From positions 17,045 through 81,044 of the forward strand of contig CALRGC010000001.1 in NCBI GenBank assembly GCA_943357105.1: DNA of 64,000 nucleotides, in the 5' to 3' direction. Under the pieces are notes generated by a model. That model was not told where the DNA came from. It made no database searches and saw nothing but the letters and a program-made list of their open reading frames with translations. The position numbers and the translations under genes are program-made. Source of the stretch: Candidatus Magasanikiibacteriota bacterium. Lineage in GTDB: Bacteria; Patescibacteriota; Patescibacteriia; Magasanikbacterales; GWA2-37-8. Below, piece by piece: positions 2,625 to 59,591 of this stretch. Numbering within the stretch: position 1 is the first letter of the stretch; each line of letters opens with the position of its first letter.

Positions 2625-3762
2625 TTTTGGCGATTGTTGTTAGCCAATTGGCGGCGGCTTTTTCCCAAGAGTAATTTTCGGCCACAGCGTGGCCTTTTTT
2701 AATATAACTATTTTTTAGTTCGGTGTCAGTGAGTAAAATTTTCATCGCTTGACTCAAGTCACTTATCTTATTGGGGTTTACTAGATAGCTGGCGTTATCG
2801 GTAATTTCCGGCAGAGAGGCGCGATTGGCGGCAATGGTAGGTGTGCCCATACGCATAGCTTCAATGAGTGGGAAGCCAAAACCTTCATAGAAACTATCAA
2901 AAATAAATAATGAAGACAGAGAATAAAAAATTGGTTTATCTTCGGCGGCAATGTAGCCAATAAATTTTATATTTGATGCCAGCGGAGATTTGGTGGCGGT
3001 ATCATAAATCTCTTTATTTTTCCAGCCGGGCGCGCCAACAATTATTAGTGAATATTTGGCGGTAATTTCAAGGGGTAACTTTTCATAAGCCTTGATAATT
3101 GTTGTAATATTTTTGCGCGGTTCAATTGACCCTAAGAATAAAATAAAATTTTCCGGTAGACCATATCGGTTTAGGACTCTGGTTTTGTCGGCGGCCAAAT
3201 TTGGGTTGGTTAGAGAAAAATTATCATTCACACCAGGGTAGATTACCTCTATTTTTTCTTTTGGTATTTCATAATAATTCATCAGATCACGTTTGGTATT
3301 GGCCGATGGTACGATGATTAGTTTGGCACTTTGACACTGTCTTTTTGAGCCGATTATTTTGTGCCAGAAATTTTGTTTGGCGGTATAGAATTCGGGGAAT
3401 AGTTTAAATGACAGGTCGTGAATAGTAAGTATATACGGAATTGTAGAGGAAAGATTAAAAAAATTAAGATTAGGCGCGTACCAGCAGTCAATTTTGACCG
3501 GAATAAATTGATCGATTTTTATCAATTTGAGCGTAAGCGCCAGATTGAAAATTTTATTTGGATAACGGCTTTCTATATAGTGAACATTATCCTGTTGCCA
3601 GGGTAAATTTTTGAGATTATAATTTTTGACGGCATTATAAAATAAATAATATTGATTTTTGGTATCCAATTTAAAAACAGCGCTGAGGAGCTCATAAGTA
3701 TACTCGCCAACGCCGGTTTTGTTTTTGGTCATGAGTGGGCGGATGTCGATGCCGATATTCAT
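2617..3762 (-). CDS. glycosyltransferase family 4 (GT1 fold)
   Basis: C-terminal EGFGFPLIEAMRMGTPTI motif; start trimmed to MNIGIDIRPL because the upstream ORF extension runs into the repeat element. Confidence 0.75.
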   Translation of the reverse strand: MNIGIDIRPLMTKNKTGVGEYTYELLSAVFKLDTKNQYYLFYNAVKNYNLKNLPWQQDNVHYIESRYPNKIFNLALTLKLIKIDQFIPVKIDCWYAPNLNFFNLSSTIPYILTIHDLSFKLFPEFYTAKQNFWHKIIGSKRQCQSAKLIIVPSANTKRDLMNYYEIPKEKIEVIYPGVNDNFSLTNPNLAADKTRVLNRYGLPENFILFLGSIEPRKNITTIIKAYEKLPLEITAKYSLIIVGAPGWKNKEIYDTATKSPLASNIKFIGYIAAEDKPIFYSLSSLFIFDSFYEGFGFPLIEAMRMGTPTIAANRASLPEITDNASYLVNPNKISDLSQAMKILLTDTELKNSYIKKGHAVAENYSWEKAAANWLTTIAKII

Positions 3763-6470: not shown

Positions 6471-6529
6471 GCTCTATATTTTAAGGCAAAATGCCAATAT
6501 AGTCAATTTATTGACAAAAGTCGCATTTC

Positions 6530-6892
6530 GTGCAGAAGCTCGTCGGGGAGGCCATCCCCGCCGAAATGACCGTCGGCGGCGTCACCTATGAGATCCTCTC
6601 CTTCCACGAGGAAGGTGAAAACTCGGTCGGCGGCGGTGTCATGGTCGAGCGTTCCAAGACGCTCAACGCCCACCAGGGCAAAAAGGAGCGGGAACACCTT
6701 CTGGCCAACCAGGCCGACATTCCGGTGGCCTGCCGCGGCAGGACGGCTTTCGTCTTCACCGACGAAAGGCATCCTGACGTTCCCGACGAGGGCGTCTACT
6801 ATGTCTGCTGGCGCGACGGCCGCTGGGTCGAGGGCTGGGACTGGCTCGACGAAGACTGGGGTCGCGGCGACCGGGTGCTCCGTCGCAAGTAG
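6530..6892 (+). CDS. hypothetical protein encoded in a high-GC (~63%) island, probably foreign or a gene fragment
   Basis: GTG start; strong GC3 codon bias unlike its neighbours; antisense ORFs on the other strand are GC artefacts. Confidence 0.4.
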   Translation: MQKLVGEAIPAEMTVGGVTYEILSFHEEGENSVGGGVMVERSKTLNAHQGKKEREHLLANQADIPVACRGRTAFVFTDERHPDVPDEGVYYVCWRDGRWVEGWDWLDEDWGRGDRVLRRK

Positions 6893-7091
6893 CCCTAGGA
6901 TTCTGGGCACCTTGGTCCTCAAGGTCGCTTGGATCATCCTTCGGTTCACTTTGGTAATTGGCCCACATCAGTACGATCCTTCGGGATACGACTGGTGTGG
7001 GCGCTTCGTTTTTATGCTGGTTATGGTCTTAAAATAGGTTGACAAAAACACTTTTTGGATGTATGATAATAATATATAATTAGAAATAATT

Positions 7092-7328
7092 ATGCAAAAA
7101 AATAATTTACAATTTTCAGTTGTTTATCAACAAGATCTCGACGGTGGTTTTATTGCTACTGTTCCCGCTTTGCCTGGTTGCCATACTCAAGGAAAAGATT
7201 TATCTCAGACTACTTTTAGAATAAAAGAAGCGATAGATTTGTATTTGGAAAGTTTTAAATCTGAAAAATCTATTCGTCAGGCCGCACAAAAACAAATTTT
7301 ATTTGGAACGGTAATGATAGGTGGTTAG
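7092..7328 (+). CDS. hicB: HicB-family antitoxin
   Basis: 78 aa; HicB/UPF0150 N-terminal domain (FIATVPALPGCHTQGKDLSQ). Confidence 0.7.
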   Translation: MQKNNLQFSVVYQQDLDGGFIATVPALPGCHTQGKDLSQTTFRIKEAIDLYLESFKSEKSIRQAAQKQILFGTVMIGG

Positions 7329-7566
7329 TATGGTTAGCTTTAGTCAATTACCAAATCTAAAAGCAAAACAATTAGTGCGTGTTTTGGAAAAGATAGGTTT
7401 TGTGGTGGTCAGGCAAAAAGGCAGTCACGTTATTTTGGTTAATGAAAAAAGTAAACTGCGTACCGTTGTACCAGTGCACACAGGAGAAACAATTAGAAAA
7501 TCATTGTTGATGGAAATTATAAAACAAGTAAATTTAACGGTAGAGAATTTTTTGGAGTTGTTATAA
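7321..7566 (+). CDS. hicA: HicA-family mRNA interferase toxin
   Basis: 81 aa; KGSHVIL...VPVHTGETI motif; 8-nt overlap with hicB. Confidence 0.7.
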   Translation: MVSMVSFSQLPNLKAKQLVRVLEKIGFVVVRQKGSHVILVNEKSKLRTVVPVHTGETIRKSLLMEIIKQVNLTVENFLELL

Positions 7567-12600: not shown

Positions 12601-13893
12601 ATGAATATCCTTATTAAAGAAATTTCCAAACATGTCGGCGAGACCGTGACTATCAAAGGCTGGCTCTACAACAAACGCAGTAGCGGGCCAATCGCCTTCC
12701 TGGAATTGCGTGATGGTTTTGGGTTTGTGCAGGGTGTGGCGGTGCAAAACACTCTGGCTCCGGAAGTGTGGCAGGCTTGTGAAGATGTGACTCAGGAGTC
12801 GTCTATTGAAGTGTCCGGTGAAGTCACCAAACATCCAAAAAAAGAAAATGTTTTTGAATTGCAGATAAAAGATTTTAAGATTTTGCAAAAGGCCGTGGAT
12901 TATCCGATAGCGCACAAAGAGCATGGTCCGGATTTTCTCATGGACAATCGTCATCTGTGGCTACGTAGCAAACGCCAGTGGGCGATTTTGCGCGTGCGTG
13001 ACGCGGTGATTATGGCGATCAATGAATATTTGCATCAGCAGAATTTTATCAAGACCGATTCACCGGTTTTCACGCCCAATGCTTGTGAAGGTACGACCAC
13101 ACTTTTTGCCGTGCCATATTTTGATCTGGGCGAAGCGTTTCTTTCTCAGTCCGGTCAGCTCTATATTGAGGCGGCGATTGCGTCGGTGGGCCGCTGTTAT
13201 GATTTTGGTCCGGTGTTTCGCGCGGAAAAAAGTAAGACCAAACGCCATCTCACTGAATTTTGGATGATGGATGCCGAGGGCGCGTTTGTGGAACATGAAG
13301 AAAATTTGAAAATTCAAGAAGGTTTGGTGCGTCATATTGTGCGCTATTGTTTGGAACATTGTATGGAGGAACTCATTATCTTGGAACGCAATATTGAAAA
13401 TCTCAAAAAAGCCGACGCTCCGTTTACGTGCTATACTTATGATGAAGCGATAGTAAAATTAAACGCGATGGGTAGCGATATTAAATATGGTGAAGATTTG
13501 GGCAATGATGATGAAGGACTGCTGACCAAAGATTCGGAAGTGCCGGTCTTTATCGAAAAATGGCCAAAGAGTATTAAACCATTTTATATGAAACGATCGG
13601 CGGAAAATCCAGATTTGGTTTACAATGATGATTTGATTGCTACTGAAGGTGGCGGTGAATTGATCGGTGGTAGTCAGCGTGAAGATGATATTGAATTATT
13701 GATTGCTTGCATCAAAGCCGAAGGACTAAATGAAGCGGACTATAGCTGGTATACAGATCTGCGCAAATATGGCAGTGTGCCACATTCCGGATTTGGTATT
13801 GGGCTAGAGCGCGCGGTGCGCTGGATCACCGGTGTGGAGCATATTCGCGAATGTATTCCGTTCCCACGTACCATCAGCAGATTGAAACCATAA
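12601..13893 (+). CDS. asnS: class IIb aminoacyl-tRNA synthetase, asparaginyl (or archaeal-type aspartyl)-tRNA ligase
   Basis: 430 aa; N-terminal OB anticodon-binding domain; class II motifs (FRAE, GSQRE, GFGIGLER). Confidence 0.8.
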   Translation: MNILIKEISKHVGETVTIKGWLYNKRSSGPIAFLELRDGFGFVQGVAVQNTLAPEVWQACEDVTQESSIEVSGEVTKHPKKENVFELQIKDFKILQKAVDYPIAHKEHGPDFLMDNRHLWLRSKRQWAILRVRDAVIMAINEYLHQQNFIKTDSPVFTPNACEGTTTLFAVPYFDLGEAFLSQSGQLYIEAAIASVGRCYDFGPVFRAEKSKTKRHLTEFWMMDAEGAFVEHEENLKIQEGLVRHIVRYCLEHCMEELIILERNIENLKKADAPFTCYTYDEAIVKLNAMGSDIKYGEDLGNDDEGLLTKDSEVPVFIEKWPKSIKPFYMKRSAENPDLVYNDDLIATEGGGELIGGSQREDDIELLIACIKAEGLNEADYSWYTDLRKYGSVPHSGFGIGLERAVRWITGVEHIRECIPFPRTISRLKP

Positions 13894-14609: not shown

Positions 14610-15182
14610 TTATTCTTTTTTTAGCGAGATTTTTTTAATAAATTTTTTAGTTTGTTTTGTTATTCTAATAGTGTATTTATCCGCATTTTTTGTTTTTATT
14701 TTATACAAATTAGCCTTAAAATTTAACCGAGCGATCATTTTTAAAACTTCATCGGCTAATTTCGGTATTATTGTTACAAAATTTACCATTATATATCCTC
14801 GATCGGAATAAATGGATCCGTCGGTTTCTATTAGTCCGCGCAGACATTCAATAGAAAATTTTTTATTATTCAATATCCATTTTGGTATTTTAATATTTTG
14901 TTTATGTTTCGGCCCATTATTTGCTTTCCAGCCAAGCAATTTTTCCCATTGATTGGAATAACAGCTGATATCGCAACAATTTTGTTTTCTGGTGACTATA
15001 GAAATTTTATTTTTAGACATTATTTCTCGTATAACTTCAATAATCCTTTGTCGCAATTTAGGATATTTATTATCACAAGTAATCCGTAGTCGTACGGCGC
15101 GTCCGTTGGGATTAGAAAGATTACCGTCGCCAATGGCGAGGCCTATTAGATAAGCTAGTTTACCCCTCCTAGTTTGAAGCAT
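14610..15182 (-). CDS. LAGLIDADG-family homing endonuclease (two motifs), free-standing, starting 3 nt after tRNA-Leu
   Basis: Motifs LIGLAIGDGNL and LRGLIETDGSI; the annotated ORF extension to 15242 overlaps the tRNA, so the internal ATG at 15182 was chosen. Confidence 0.7.
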   Translation of the reverse strand: MLQTRRGKLAYLIGLAIGDGNLSNPNGRAVRLRITCDNKYPKLRQRIIEVIREIMSKNKISIVTRKQNCCDISCYSNQWEKLLGWKANNGPKHKQNIKIPKWILNNKKFSIECLRGLIETDGSIYSDRGYIMVNFVTIIPKLADEVLKMIARLNFKANLYKIKTKNADKYTIRITKQTKKFIKKISLKKE

Positions 15183-15185
15183 ATT

Positions 15186-15270
15186 TGGTGCCGATGGTGG
15201 GACTTGAACCCACAAACCCGAAGGCACATGATTTTGAGTCATGCATGTTTACCAATTTCATCACATCGGC
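15186..15270 (-). tRNA. tRNA-Leu (anticodon CAA), long variable arm, CCA encoded
   Basis: Cloverleaf: acceptor GCCGATG/CATCGGC; anticodon loop CTCAAAA; T-loop GGTTCAAGTCC. Confidence 0.8.
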
Positions 15271-16987: not shown

Positions 16988-17152
16988 AAAAAAGACTTTG
17001 GATTTTTTACCTGATAAAAGTTCGCATAATTGGCTATAAATTTTCGTTATGGCCCTAAGGGTAGGGCCATTGGCCTTACGGCCACCACTCAAATTTACTT
17101 AACGCCAATTAGGGGCTCACTTTTATGCGGTAAAAAATCCAAAGTCTTTTTT
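16988..17152. repeat. Structured repeat family 1, copy 2, between convergent parB and tsaD
   Basis: IR aaaaaagactttggattttttacc / ggtaaaaaatccaaagtctttttt; core about 88% identical to copy 1 with compensatory changes; A-tract and T-tract flanks. Confidence 0.8.
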
Positions 17153-17155
17153 ATT

Positions 17156-18235
17156 TTAAAAATTGAGGTGCCAATTTGGGTCTGCCTTTATATCCTCCCA
17201 TTTTGTATAATTATTCTTTTGGGCTTGGTAATATCCGGCCACGGCAATCATCGCGCCGTTATCCATGCAGTATTTTAATTCTGGGCAGAGGAATTTTGTG
17301 TCTGGGAAATTGTCGGTAATATTTTTTTGTAAACATTCCCGTAGTTTTTTATTGGCGCTGACGCCGCCAGCCAGCACCAAAGTTTTTGGTTTTATTTTTT
17401 CTACGGCCTTGAGAGTTTTATAGGCCAACACATCTACTATCGACTGTTCAAAGCTGGCGCAGAAATCTTCGCGGGTGATTGGGTCACCGGAGATACCTAG
17501 TCGGCTTGGCAACCAAGAAAAAATTTTTCCAATTCCAGTAGGATTTACAGCAGCTAGTTTATGATCCCGTAGCCAATACAGTGCGGCGGTTTTTAATCCG
17601 GAAAAAGAAAATTCAAAATTATTTTCTTTGATCATCGGACGCGGTAAATTTATCGCGTCAGTTTTGCCATTCATCGCCAGTTTGGAAATTTGAGGACCAC
17701 CGGGATAGGGAATATCCAATAATTTAGCGACTTTATCAAAACATTCACCAGCGGCATCATCTTTGGTGGCGCCGAGCACTTTATAACTTCCCGGTTCATT
17801 AATTTGGACTATTTCAGTATGACCTCCGCTCACGACTAGAGCAATCGCGGGATATTCGATTTTTTGTCCCGGCGTTAATTCCACCGAATATACATGACCC
17901 TGGAGATGATTGGTCGCAATAAGTGGGATGTTCCAGACCATAGATAAAGTGCGAGCGGCTTCCACGCCCACAATCAATCCGGTGATTAAGCCAGGTCCAG
18001 CCGTGACCGCGATGGCGTCAGGTTTCGGTTGGTCTTTGAGAATTTCTTCAATCAGTGGAATAATTTTTTCGGCATGCATGCGTCCGGCGATTTCCGGCAC
18101 TACACCGCCGTATTTTTTATGCACATCAATTTGCGAAGCAGTTTTTTCGGATAACACAACACAGCCTTGTTCACTACAATCTAGTAGTGCTACGGAAGTA
18201 TCATCACAAGATGATTCAATGCCAAGTATAATCAT
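17156..18235 (-). CDS. tsaD: tRNA N6-adenosine threonylcarbamoyltransferase TsaD
   Basis: 359 aa; Kae1/TsaD family (MIILGIESSCDDTSVALL). Confidence 0.9.
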   Translation of the reverse strand: MIILGIESSCDDTSVALLDCSEQGCVVLSEKTASQIDVHKKYGGVVPEIAGRMHAEKIIPLIEEILKDQPKPDAIAVTAGPGLITGLIVGVEAARTLSMVWNIPLIATNHLQGHVYSVELTPGQKIEYPAIALVVSGGHTEIVQINEPGSYKVLGATKDDAAGECFDKVAKLLDIPYPGGPQISKLAMNGKTDAINLPRPMIKENNFEFSFSGLKTAALYWLRDHKLAAVNPTGIGKIFSWLPSRLGISGDPITREDFCASFEQSIVDVLAYKTLKAVEKIKPKTLVLAGGVSANKKLRECLQKNITDNFPDTKFLCPELKYCMDNGAMIAVAGYYQAQKNNYTKWEDIKADPNWHLNF

Positions 18236-18275
18236 AAAATAGTGAAACTATTTAATCATAATTTTTCTCTCTTGG

Positions 18276-18314
18276 CAATAAAAACAGAACCCCACCGGCA
18301 TGTGCCGGTGGGGG
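18276..18314 (-). terminator. GC-rich intrinsic terminator for prs
   Basis: ccccaccggca-catg-ccggtgggg stem plus T-tract on the minus strand. Confidence 0.7.
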
Positions 18315-18349
18315 AAAGACTGTCGTGATACGCATCGGCTTGACGCGCA

Positions 18350-19288
18350 TCAAAACAAATCGCTGATTGAATCGCCGTCGTGGGTACGGCGAACGGCCTT
18401 GGCGAAGAGGCCGGCGACCGACACGACCTCGAGCTTGTCACTCACCTTCCCTTTCAAGGGGATGGTGTCGCTGACGAGCACCCGCTCGATGATGCTCTGG
18501 TTGATGCGGTCGATGGCCGGTCCAGAGAGGACCCCGTGGGTGGCCACGACCCGGACCGACAAGGCCCCGCGGTCCATGACGAACTTGGCGGCTTCCACGA
18601 TGGTCCCGCCCGTAGCAATTTCGTCATCCACGATGATCGCGTGCAGGCCACTGACATCCCCGATGAGGTTGGTGGCCGTCGCCTTGTCGTCGTCGCCGTA
18701 GCGGCGTTTGTCCACGACCGCGACTGGAAGTTGCAGACGATTGGCGAATTTGCCAATGTCCTTTGTTTCTCCCACATCGCCGGCGACCAGCACACAACCT
18801 TCCAGCTTCCACTGCTTCTTCATGTACTCGCAGAGCGTCGGCGCTCCCACCAGGTGATCGGTCGGGATGCGGAAGAAACCCTGGATCTGCGGGGAATGCA
18901 AGTCCATCATCATCACTCGATTGGCGCCAGCTGTATGCAGGAGATCGGCCATCAGGCGCGCCGTGATCGAGATCCGGGGCTTGTCCTTCTTGTCGGAGCG
19001 AGCATAGAAGTAGTAGGGCATGACGACCGTGATCCGATTCGCCGACGCGTGTTTGAGGGCGTCGACAGCGATGAGCATTTCCACAATGCCGTCGCTGACC
19101 GGAGGGGCCATGGTCTGGATGTAGAAGACATCACAGCCGCGGACATTTTCGCCGATCTGGACCATCAGATTCTCGTTGCTGAAGCGCACCGTCTTGCTCG
19201 GAGTGAGCTTGAGATCCAGATGACCGCAGATGTTCTCAGCGAAATGGGTGTGGCTGCTACCGGAGATGACGCGAATGTTGCCGTTCAT
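18350..19288 (-). CDS. prs: ribose-phosphate pyrophosphokinase (PRPP synthetase) at ~60% GC, atypical for this genome
   Basis: 312 aa full-length Prs; strong GC3 bias; TGA stop; overlapping antisense ORFs are GC artefacts. Confidence 0.9.
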   Translation of the reverse strand: MNGNIRVISGSSHTHFAENICGHLDLKLTPSKTVRFSNENLMVQIGENVRGCDVFYIQTMAPPVSDGIVEMLIAVDALKHASANRITVVMPYYFYARSDKKDKPRISITARLMADLLHTAGANRVMMMDLHSPQIQGFFRIPTDHLVGAPTLCEYMKKQWKLEGCVLVAGDVGETKDIGKFANRLQLPVAVVDKRRYGDDDKATATNLIGDVSGLHAIIVDDEIATGGTIVEAAKFVMDRGALSVRVVATHGVLSGPAIDRINQSIIERVLVSDTIPLKGKVSDKLEVVSVAGLFAKAVRRTHDGDSISDLF

Positions 19289-19431
19289 GGTGTTTCCTCA
19301 CTTTGAAAAGAGCGTTTGGGTACGAAAAACGATCCGCCTTGGATCGTTGCTGAGTTGTTAATTATATTAAACCTTCCAATACTCATAATGTCAATCAAGT
19401 GTCAATATATTTTTGTTTACTTTTGTTATAC

Positions 19432-19472: not shown

Positions 19473-19544
19473 GGCCTCATCGTCTAATGGTTAGGACAGC
19501 TCGCTTTCAATGAGCAAATACGAGTTCGATTCTCGTTGGGGCTA
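19473..19544 (+). tRNA. tRNA-Glu (anticodon UUC)
   Basis: Positions fit the standard cloverleaf numbering; anticodon loop CTTTCAA; T-loop TTCGATT; two G-U pairs in the acceptor stem. Confidence 0.75.
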
Positions 19545-19824
19545 CAAAACGGGTTTTACCTTCGGCGAAAGCCTTGGAAAGCTCAAAGGTTAGCGACAAT
19601 TTAGGTGTTCCATTAACTAAATTTTCGTAGGTTGGGAATTCCTTGAACAACAGGCCAAACATGGCCTGTTGTTTTGTCATATTATCGCTAACTATAAGGA
19701 AATACTCAGGGTGTTCCATTAAATATTTGACGTGATTTATAAACGCCTTAATTTCGTATTCTGTCACCTCAATTTCTTGTCTTTCTTCTTGAGTGTTTAT
19801 AATTCGTTTTTCTAAACCACTCAA
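19507..19824 (-). CDS. questionable ORF (105 aa) overlapping the 3' half of tRNA-Glu and its terminator
   Basis: Protein-like composition, but it spans a 12-bp perfect hairpin and 38 nt of the tRNA; probably spurious. Confidence 0.25.
   Translation of the reverse strand: MSGLEKRIINTQEERQEIEVTEYEIKAFINHVKYLMEHPEYFLIVSDNMTKQQAMFGLLFKEFPTYENLVNGTPKLSLTFELSKAFAEGKTRFVAPTRIELVFAH
19645..19678 (+). terminator. intrinsic terminator after tRNA-Glu (12-bp perfect stem plus T-tract)
   Basis: aacaacaggcca-aaca-tggcctgttgtt followed by ttgtcat. Confidence 0.65.
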
Positions 19825-59502: not shown

Positions 59503-59517
59503 ATGTAAGAATTATTG

Positions 59518-59591
59518 TGCTCCCAGATGGACTTGAACCATCGACCACCAAATTATAAGTCTGGTGCTCTAACCAGCTGAGCTATGGGAGC
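59518..59591 (-). tRNA. tRNA-Ile with UAU anticodon (AUA decoder)
   Basis: Acceptor GCTCCCA/TGGGAGC; anticodon loop CTTATAA; Ile-type D and T arms. Confidence 0.7.

Follow-up and report, generated by a model that had tools for sequence, protein, structure and literature searches.

The 64-kb stretch of DNA analyzed here (hereafter the window; positions 17,045 to 81,044 of contig CALRGC010000001.1, assembly GCA_943357105.1, 41.6% GC) carries a GC-rich prs gene, encoding a ribose-phosphate diphosphokinase (phosphoribosyl pyrophosphate (PRPP) synthase), between a tRNA-Glu gene and tsaD. Very probably, this gene is a single-gene cassette that was transferred from a high-GC, Myxococcota-type donor into a lineage ancestral to a small Ca. 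Magasanikbacteria clade within the Candidate Phyla Radiation (CPR). We posit that the cassette, consisting of a 5' leader, prs, a 3' untranslated region (UTR) and a terminator, landed in the ~100-nt tRNA-Glu/tsaD spacer behind a resident AT-rich, host-type promoter from which prs would be read, with translation presumably starting from the cassette's own GGAGG-type ribosome-binding site. The product is predicted to catalyze the conversion of ribose-5-phosphate and ATP to PRPP and AMP, and the cassette's own terminator would insulate it from tsaD, which has a separate putative promoter. Following acquisition, the gene would have been inherited vertically through at least five species-level lineages, half of it being deleted in one, while its synonymous sites decayed from a GC content at third codon positions (GC3) of ~0.9 or more towards the host's 0.39.

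Compositionally, the prs open reading frame (ORF; 312 aa, ATG start, TGA stop) has a GC content of 0.594 against 0.413 for the remaining window, with 0.60/0.39/0.80 at the first, second and third codon positions (GC1/2/3). Among the remaining ORFs that do not overlap and encode 150 aa or more (n = 49), GC3 averages 0.388 (standard deviation (sd) 0.052, maximum 0.47), which places prs 7.9 sd away, and the 1-kb interval starting at 18301 is the GC peak of the entire 64 kb (0.594 versus a mean of 0.417, sd 0.035, z 5.1). When followed in 50-nt steps, GC rises from 0.28–0.36 to 0.60 at the ~18300 border and falls from 0.48 to 0.26 at the ~19350 border, and these steps, together with sequence landmarks, delimit a foreign block spanning ~18290–19352. 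An initial annotation, made from the sequence alone, had described a complete GC-rich prs in an AT-rich genome, with a 312-aa product, a TGA stop, strongly GC-biased third positions and a sharp compositional break on either side, next to an AT-rich tsaD and a tRNA-Glu gene with a consensus-like promoter, and all of these features are borne out, the tRNA-Glu promoter being a near-consensus TTGACT-16-TATAAT (11 of 12 matches). The coordinates that it gave, 18276–19320, located the block and fell slightly short on the 5' side, where the GC-rich part reaches ~19352.

Functionally, the product is an intact class I PRPP synthase as judged from its domains and conserved residues. It passes the NCBIfam models NF002320 (354.5 bits versus a cut-off of 297) and TIGR01251 (337.2 bits versus 113), has the full-length Pfam architecture of PF13793 (Pribosyltran_N) plus PF00156/PF14572 (Pribosyltran/Pribosyl_synth), and aligns over residues 7–312 with the solved structures 5t3o/7pn0 (E 4e-89) and 1dkr (3e-77). 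It also retains 54 of the 55 near-invariant columns of the family (those at least 97% conserved among 55 other Prs), the sole change being I299V, and contains the motifs DLH-x-x-QIQGFF, DKRR and VDDEIATGGT, in agreement with the full motif set noted originally. Compared with the class I enzymes represented by these models and structures, the domain set and motifs are the same and no functional difference stands out; what sets the proteins of the window clade apart is that they evolve faster than their genomic neighbors, and that none of the species-group equivalog models of NCBIfam against which the window Prs was scored was reached.

Evolutionarily, the recipient belongs to the CPR, as the initial annotation had considered possible, and more precisely to Ca. 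Magasanikbacteria. The named relatives of its asparaginyl-tRNA synthetase (12601–13893) are all CPR, with Ca. Magasanikbacteria at 87, 80, 79, 78, 77 and 76% identity alongside “Parcubacteria group” and “Patescibacteria group” entries, and a syntenic Prs relative (P0041/L042) is also labeled Ca. Magasanikbacteria. Labels of “uncultured Gammaproteobacteria/Enterobacteriaceae” on some Third Party Annotation assemblies were disregarded, as they are contradicted by gene content and relatives. For Prs itself, a search of 185,579 species genomes found the nearest sequences outside the cassette clade in metagenome-assembled genomes (MAGs) labeled, by several groups, as Myxococcota, Myxococcales or Deltaproteobacteria (L005–L012, 68–73% identity). 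There, prs matches its surroundings in composition (gene GC 0.62–0.65, flanks 0.65–0.69) and is preceded by the same upstream gene in eight of eight genomes, and is thus native. Native-composition prs genes of CPR, which a TsaD-based metagenome scan located downstream of tsaD in 15 loci, encode proteins that are 44–50% identical to the window Prs and ~60–69% identical to their nearest relatives among themselves. A neighbor-joining tree (52 taxa, 200 bootstraps) recovered the native CPR Prs as one clade (100%), the window clade as another (100%), and the window clade together with Myxococcota clade A and a second Magasanikbacteria copy, L049, as a third grouping (98%).

Composition and Prs phylogeny together uphold the original proposal of horizontal acquisition from a high-GC donor, with a different donor phylum from the one expected. 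Actinobacteria, which together with other high-GC taxa had been expected to be nearest, are absent among the named top Prs matches, and an actinobacterial donor was rejected since the named and GTDB species matches are Myxococcota/“Deltaproteobacteria”, with a few from Alphaproteobacteria at 61% identity. The initial annotation had also reasoned that a grouping of Prs with close relatives of this genome would speak against transfer; Prs does group with them, and the transfer stands nonetheless, because the GC-rich cassette is present in those relatives too and the clade as a whole is nested within Myxococcota sequences. A phage vector was likewise rejected, given that the best Prs in IMG/VR is 51% identical to that of the window.

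The age of the event can be read from the divergence between the window and L003, a 464-kb contig (L003/L004) of a GTDB species representative. Seven neighboring proteins are 85–97% identical between the two (TsaD 93.6%), at a synonymous divergence (dS) of 0.55–2.1, and clade-wide Prs identity is 72–84%. The dS of prs for this pair, 0.67 (NG86) to 1.8 (YN00), lies within the range of its neighbors, so the cassette diverged along with its surroundings and the transfer predates the window–L003 split. Nonsynonymous divergence is 0.12–0.13 for prs versus 0.02–0.10 for the neighbors, the protein evolving 3–4 times faster than they do with its catalytic core kept. On terminal branches, synonymous third-position changes run 46 GC-to-AT versus 15 AT-to-GC (20:3 on the window branch, binomial p 9e-5), where ~6:1 is expected for decay towards a GC3 of 0.39 and 1:1 for a maintained composition. 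The five genes of the clade contain 52–85 AT-ending codons each, of which only four are common to all five, so that their common ancestor must have been almost devoid of such codons, like Myxococcota today (GC3 0.85–0.98). Shared junctions, neighbor-like dS and independently arisen AT-ending codons thus date the event to before the radiation: prs entered shortly before the clade split into at least five species-level lineages and is ameliorating now, having covered only about one fifth of the way. The term “recent” in the initial annotation therefore holds on the scale of amelioration and fails as a description of a strain-specific event, the junctions being shared with at least five other assemblies and the neighbors having a dS of ~0.6–2.

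The same slot was found in several other states among relatives. It is empty in L045, L046, L047, L048 and L051, in which tRNA-Glu lies ~100 nt from the start of tsaD with only two divergent promoters in between and TsaD is 73–77% identical to that of the window. In L114 (TsaD 88% identical, tRNA-Glu identical), a deletion remnant at 438–800 fuses the leader and prs codons 1 to ~100 to the distal 3' UTR and terminator. In the Ca. Magasanikbacteria loci L049/L042-44, the slot holds a prs of native composition (GC3 0.39), which abuts tsaD (TAA-T-ATG) and has no terminator; its product is 72–73% identical to Myxococcota clade A and 62–65% identical to the window clade. Monophyly in CPR of the window-clade and L049-type Prs was recovered in 0 of 300 bootstraps, which together with composition makes the L049 copy an older, fully ameliorated arrival of the same donor type. 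On these grounds, descent of the window-clade and L049/L042 copies from one ancient transfer was rejected, as genes of equal age could not differ so much in composition. The window-type prs may, however, have replaced a resident copy like that of L049.

The site that prs usually occupies in CPR, just downstream of tsaD, holds prs in more distant relatives and lacks it in this family, and the acquired gene is thus most likely the cell's PRPP synthase, a predicted case of xenologous displacement. A second, native-composition prs, which the initial annotation had suggested looking for, was sought across the 64 kb by tblastn with window, ameliorated and native CPR Prs as queries, and only the gene itself was returned. 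CPR bacteria lack de novo nucleotide synthesis and need PRPP for salvage.

Among other ways of explaining these data, the abrupt compositional breaks and the origin of the contig in a short-read metagenome assembly (a k141 contig) could be taken to mean that DNA from a GC-rich organism was misassembled or misbinned into a CPR contig. We regard such a chimera as practically impossible, in keeping with its dismissal in the initial annotation, and rejected it. The exact protein is recorded both on the 437-kb ENA contig from which the window derives and on a 3.7-kb contig produced by another assembler (the Logan assembly of run ERR5863125). The 3.7-kb contig, extending from inside tsaD to past the PG_binding gene, is identical to the window at 3704 of 3704 nt and crosses both junctions. 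The succession of tRNA-Glu, GC-rich prs, terminator and tsaD also recurs in other samples, namely in five further assemblies of diverged sequence (L003/L004; L039 and L041, which with L040, a 1-kb contig holding the GC-rich gene alone, come from three other sequencing runs; and the Joint Genome Institute metagenomes L050 and L114). The alignment of the window with L003 is collinear from tRNA-Glu through spacer, prs and terminator to tsaD at ~80% nucleotide identity, with both sequences changing composition at the very same nucleotides, and the cassette has diverged in step with its neighbors. A native prs whose GC richness is kept by selection or biased gene conversion would account for a GC3 of 0.73–0.83 in every clade member despite synonymous divergence at or near saturation, and for the widespread adjacency of prs and tsaD in CPR; we find it extremely doubtful, however, since the protein nests in Myxococcota outside the fully supported native CPR clade, the direction of substitution is that of decay and not of maintenance, the copy that a sister family has in this slot (L049/L042) is completely ameliorated, and, one small island aside, no window gene shares the GC bias. 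An arrival in this genome alone, to which a GC3 still at 0.80 and a far from complete amelioration might point, is only slightly less improbable, because L003, L039, L041, L114 and L050 share the junctions of the window and have UTRs homologous to its own, the prs dS between window and L003 equals that of the surrounding genes, and the AT-ending codons arose independently in each lineage.

A possible, though in our view clearly less probable, account than a single transfer into the clade's ancestor is that the cassette is a mobile unit among related CPR, exchanged by homologous recombination through the tRNA-Glu and tsaD flanks once it had come in from Myxococcota on one or a few occasions. 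Close relatives indeed present a patchwork of filled, empty, remnant and ameliorated slots, and variable small insertions beside tRNA-Glu, including a duplicated tRNA end in L039, would fit such traffic. In a host tree of TsaD, ParB and ParA, the grouping of window, L003 and L039 has 100% support and that of L045, L046, L047 and L049 has 99%; the ameliorated L049 copy thus lies in a clade whose other three members are empty, which is hard to reconcile with simple vertical descent. L050, moreover, shares the 3' UTR, terminator, right-hand junction and tsaD promoter (as well as 5' leader homology) with the window clade, yet in no host-marker tree is it the sister of that clade. Against exchange, the deep nodes of the host tree are unsupported, so that vertical inheritance with losses still fits; the dS of prs equals that of its neighbors within the window clade; and the window cassette has neither flanking repeats nor a recombinase, with no close viral Prs as noted above. 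Specifically, no consistent flanking repeat was found around the cassette in a search for att sites, target-site duplications and direct repeats, an 8-nt ATTATGAT-like match upstream of both prs and tsaD was discarded as too short and AT-rich to count as a repeat, and no recombinase or integrase lies within the GC-rich block, which accordingly does not qualify as an integrase-mediated, tRNA-linked island.

Several observations weigh against the transfer of a single cassette from Myxococcota into the ancestor of the window clade, which we nevertheless favor. The C-terminal 205 aa of the L050 Prs are 83% identical to Myxococcota L005–L007 and group with them at 98% bootstrap; this could reflect faster evolution of the window clade, a second conversion event or passage of the cassette among CPR lineages, and both a star-like three-way split combined with window-clade acceleration and an exchange of cassettes via the conserved flanks fit the L050 distances. 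The deep nodes of the TsaD+ParB+ParA tree do not separate the window clade, L050, L048 and the L045–L049 clade, so the empty sites fit either an ancestral state or clean losses. Every Prs tree is a neighbor-joining tree of one 310-aa protein. The cassette UTRs have no recognizable homology to the prs flanks of the sampled Myxococcota (L005–L036), and no donor can therefore be aligned with the transferred fragment over its full length. Lastly, a consensus promoter scan of the window did not call the prs promoter listed in Table 1, and the use of that promoter, the expression and activity of prs, its physiological necessity and its mechanism of integration are what we infer from sequence alone.

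In the spacer adjoining tRNA-Glu, different small insertions were observed in L039 (61–154), L003 (9843–9880) and L114 (217–262), and in L039 part of the insertion is a second copy of the 15-nt tRNA 5' end, suggesting that DNA has integrated and excised at tRNA-Glu more than once. Beyond tRNA-Glu in L042 (453–9283), two large serine recombinases, an AAA_15/DUF4276 pair and hypothetical genes make up an integrated element; these recombinases belong to an insertion other than the cassette.

Beyond this clade, GC-rich prs genes lie downstream of tsaD, the native position, in other low-GC, CPR-like contigs (L027, L075/76, L037 and L067; Table 1). The L027 Prs is 79% identical to that of the Deltaproteobacteria MAG L016 and falls inside a Myxococcota clade (L013–L022) with 99% support, and the L075/76 Prs pairs with the Myxococcales MAG L020 at 100% bootstrap. 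By these well-supported placements, at least three separate Myxococcota lineages have donated prs to CPR, each time beside tsaD, and at least two CPR lineages other than that of the window are seen to have acquired a Myxococcota-type prs there independently. We found no report of Myxococcota-to-CPR prs transfer in the literature. The acquired cassettes have a leader layout in common, consisting of a TTGACA-type promoter, a 6–8-bp hairpin with a G-rich 3' arm, a U-run, GGAGG and the start codon, with a AGATCTTT-like motif just before the hairpin in L027, L037 and L067. This layout was found neither in native CPR prs nor upstream of prs in the sampled Myxococcota, and no Rfam family matched it (the window leader being the one scanned), which hints that the expression or regulation of a foreign prs makes the same demand in each case. 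Tentatively, Magasanikbacteria-like CPR might repeatedly re-acquire prs from Myxococcota, always beside tsaD, and a lasting epibiont–host or prey–predator association might lie behind this, an idea to which we give a low probability. The step from repeated transfer to host association, and with it the notion that the donor is the host, is speculation, although the repeated independent transfers make that notion worth testing. If the idea were true, the hosts of uncultured CPR, Magasanikbacteria included, could be predicted with GC-rich prs alleles as genomic markers.

Two further loci deserve mention as separate observations. In L037 (8898–10982), tsaD and the GC-rich prs are each split into two tblastn segments or show an early stop, and these breaks could be frameshifts, assembly errors or the result of an alternative genetic code. 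In L092 (7384–8316), a native-type CPR Prs (69% identical to L100) is encoded at a GC3 of 0.71 on a contig of 0.50 GC, so a moderately raised GC3 in prs is not always Myxococcota-derived.

Conceptually, amelioration in the sense of Lawrence and Ochman and xenologous (orthologous) gene displacement are both established. The case described here agrees with the former in that third positions decay to the host equilibrium with the predicted GC-to-AT excess, and with the latter in that a housekeeping gene of foreign composition would cover for a missing native copy. It departs from classical displacement in two ways: the window prs sits not in the native slot downstream of tsaD but across tsaD, in the tRNA-Glu/tsaD spacer, and that very slot is taken, in a sister lineage, by an older copy from the same type of donor whose amelioration is complete. 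As in tRNA-adjacent genomic islands, the insertion adjoins a tRNA gene, in a spacer that is an indel hot spot (as seen from the duplicated tRNA end of L039); unlike them, the window cassette is one gene of ~1.06 kb without integrase or flanking direct repeats, and it lies on the promoter (5') side of the tRNA instead of at its 3' end. The text searched of a study of CPR metabolism (Jaffe et al. 2020, BMC Biol 18:69, PMC7304191) describes that metabolism as shaped by lateral transfer and tracks PRPP-related traits as presence or absence, and so shares with our case the explanation of a patchy central-metabolism gene by transfer and loss; the same portion of text has no mention of Myxococcota, Magasanikbacteria or GC anomalies. 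In kind, then, the event is a well-known one, the transfer of a housekeeping gene between phyla into a reduced genome, and its value is that of a clean, datable example in which one slot displays all stages, from empty site and fresh insertion through a partly ameliorated radiation and a half-deleted remnant to a fully ameliorated older copy. Of wider interest is the pointer to a recurrent Myxococcota-to-CPR route, along which several CPR lineages would have replaced their own prs independently; if this repeated replacement reflects cell association, it would offer a testable, sequence-based host prediction for Magasanikbacteria.

Structurally, both ends of the cassette carry hairpins. At the 3' end, the hairpin CCCCACCGGCACATGCCGGTGGGG (18313–18290, minus strand; 10 pairs, 9 of them G–C) is followed by TTCTGTTTTT and was called as a terminator, and the 3' UTR folds at −36.6 kcal/mol (z −5.5; 0 of 200 shuffles as stable), in support of the GC-rich hairpin terminator of the initial annotation. 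Three pairs of the stem have changed on both sides among the window, L003-type and L050 versions, the third of them in L050. The leader hairpin, a putative functional element, is kept in all five clade members (in L003 with one pair changed on both sides) and has a modest stability (z −1.4 to −2.3); it could be an attenuator, or a terminator carried over from the gene that precedes prs in the donor. An Rfam scan of the cassette UTRs returned no match at gathering thresholds and nothing credible up to E 1. Inspected by eye, the stretch with the putative prs promoter looks similar both to the region of the tsaD promoter in the empty sites (AAATTG.C..TATGAT) and to the promoter that precedes the ameliorated L049 prs.

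Table 1 Features of the prs cassette and its slot in the window, and GC-rich prs loci of other CPR-like contigs.
Feature	Position	Strand	Description	Basis
tsaD	17156-18235	minus	Right-hand landmark of the insertion slot; native composition, GC3 0.39; downstream of prs	
Putative tsaD promoter	18248..18278	minus	TTGCCA-17-TTAAAT, downstream of the terminator; would serve tsaD	Assigned by eye; conserved in L003, L039, L041, L050, L114
Terminator U-run	18277..18289	minus	TTCTGTTTTTATT; right-hand junction with host-like AT-rich DNA	Same junction in L003, L039, L041, L050, L114
3' UTR of cassette	18290..18349	minus	GC-rich, ends in intrinsic-terminator stem-loop	Terminator call, fold
prs coding sequence	18350..19288	minus	Class I ribose-phosphate diphosphokinase	ORF and composition, NCBIfam, conserved columns
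5' leader	19289..19352	minus	Intermediate to high GC	GAGGA Shine-Dalgarno at ~19299-19295; 8-bp hairpin and U5 at 19348-19325
Putative prs promoter	19361..19405	minus	AT-rich, host-like	TTGACA at 19394-19389, TAATAT/TATAAT at ~19369-19361; assigned by eye
tRNA-Glu(UUC)	19473-19545	plus	Left-hand landmark of the insertion slot; divergent, transcribed away from prs	
L027 (Ca. Magasanikbacteria)	L027:4300-4389 (shared leader)		prs GC3 0.73, flanks 0.43	
L037	L037:9900-10000 (shared leader)		prs GC3 0.77, flanks 0.44	
L067	L067:3600-3685 (shared leader)		prs GC3 0.90, flanks 0.43	
L075/76	L075:4900-4986 (shared leader)		prs GC3 0.82, flanks 0.46-0.49	

Elsewhere in the window, a second single-gene GC-rich island was observed in the region 6500–7000, where an ORF on the plus strand (6530–6892, 120 aa, GC1/2/3 0.69/0.42/0.83) matches nothing in Pfam. 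The ~1.1 kb in which it lies, next to a HicB/HicA pair (7092–7328 and 7321–7566), is missing from the corresponding interval in L003. Only eight homologs were found among 5.8 billion proteins; the two with readable DNA, L125 and L126, are GC-rich islands as well (GC3 0.90, contig GC 0.32–0.48), that of L125 sitting beside an rve integrase, and no high-GC home genome for the family was found among the eight homologs, the DNA of two of which was read. On the minus strand, a LAGLIDADG-family ORF (Pfam LAGLIDADG_3, 14610–15242) overlaps tRNA-Leu(CAA) (15186–15270, minus) by ~57 nt; it is not at this place in L003 and is present in L045 and L050. The window also encodes a tRNA-Ile with a UAU anticodon (59517–59591, minus), which is an uncommon means of reading AUA in bacteria.

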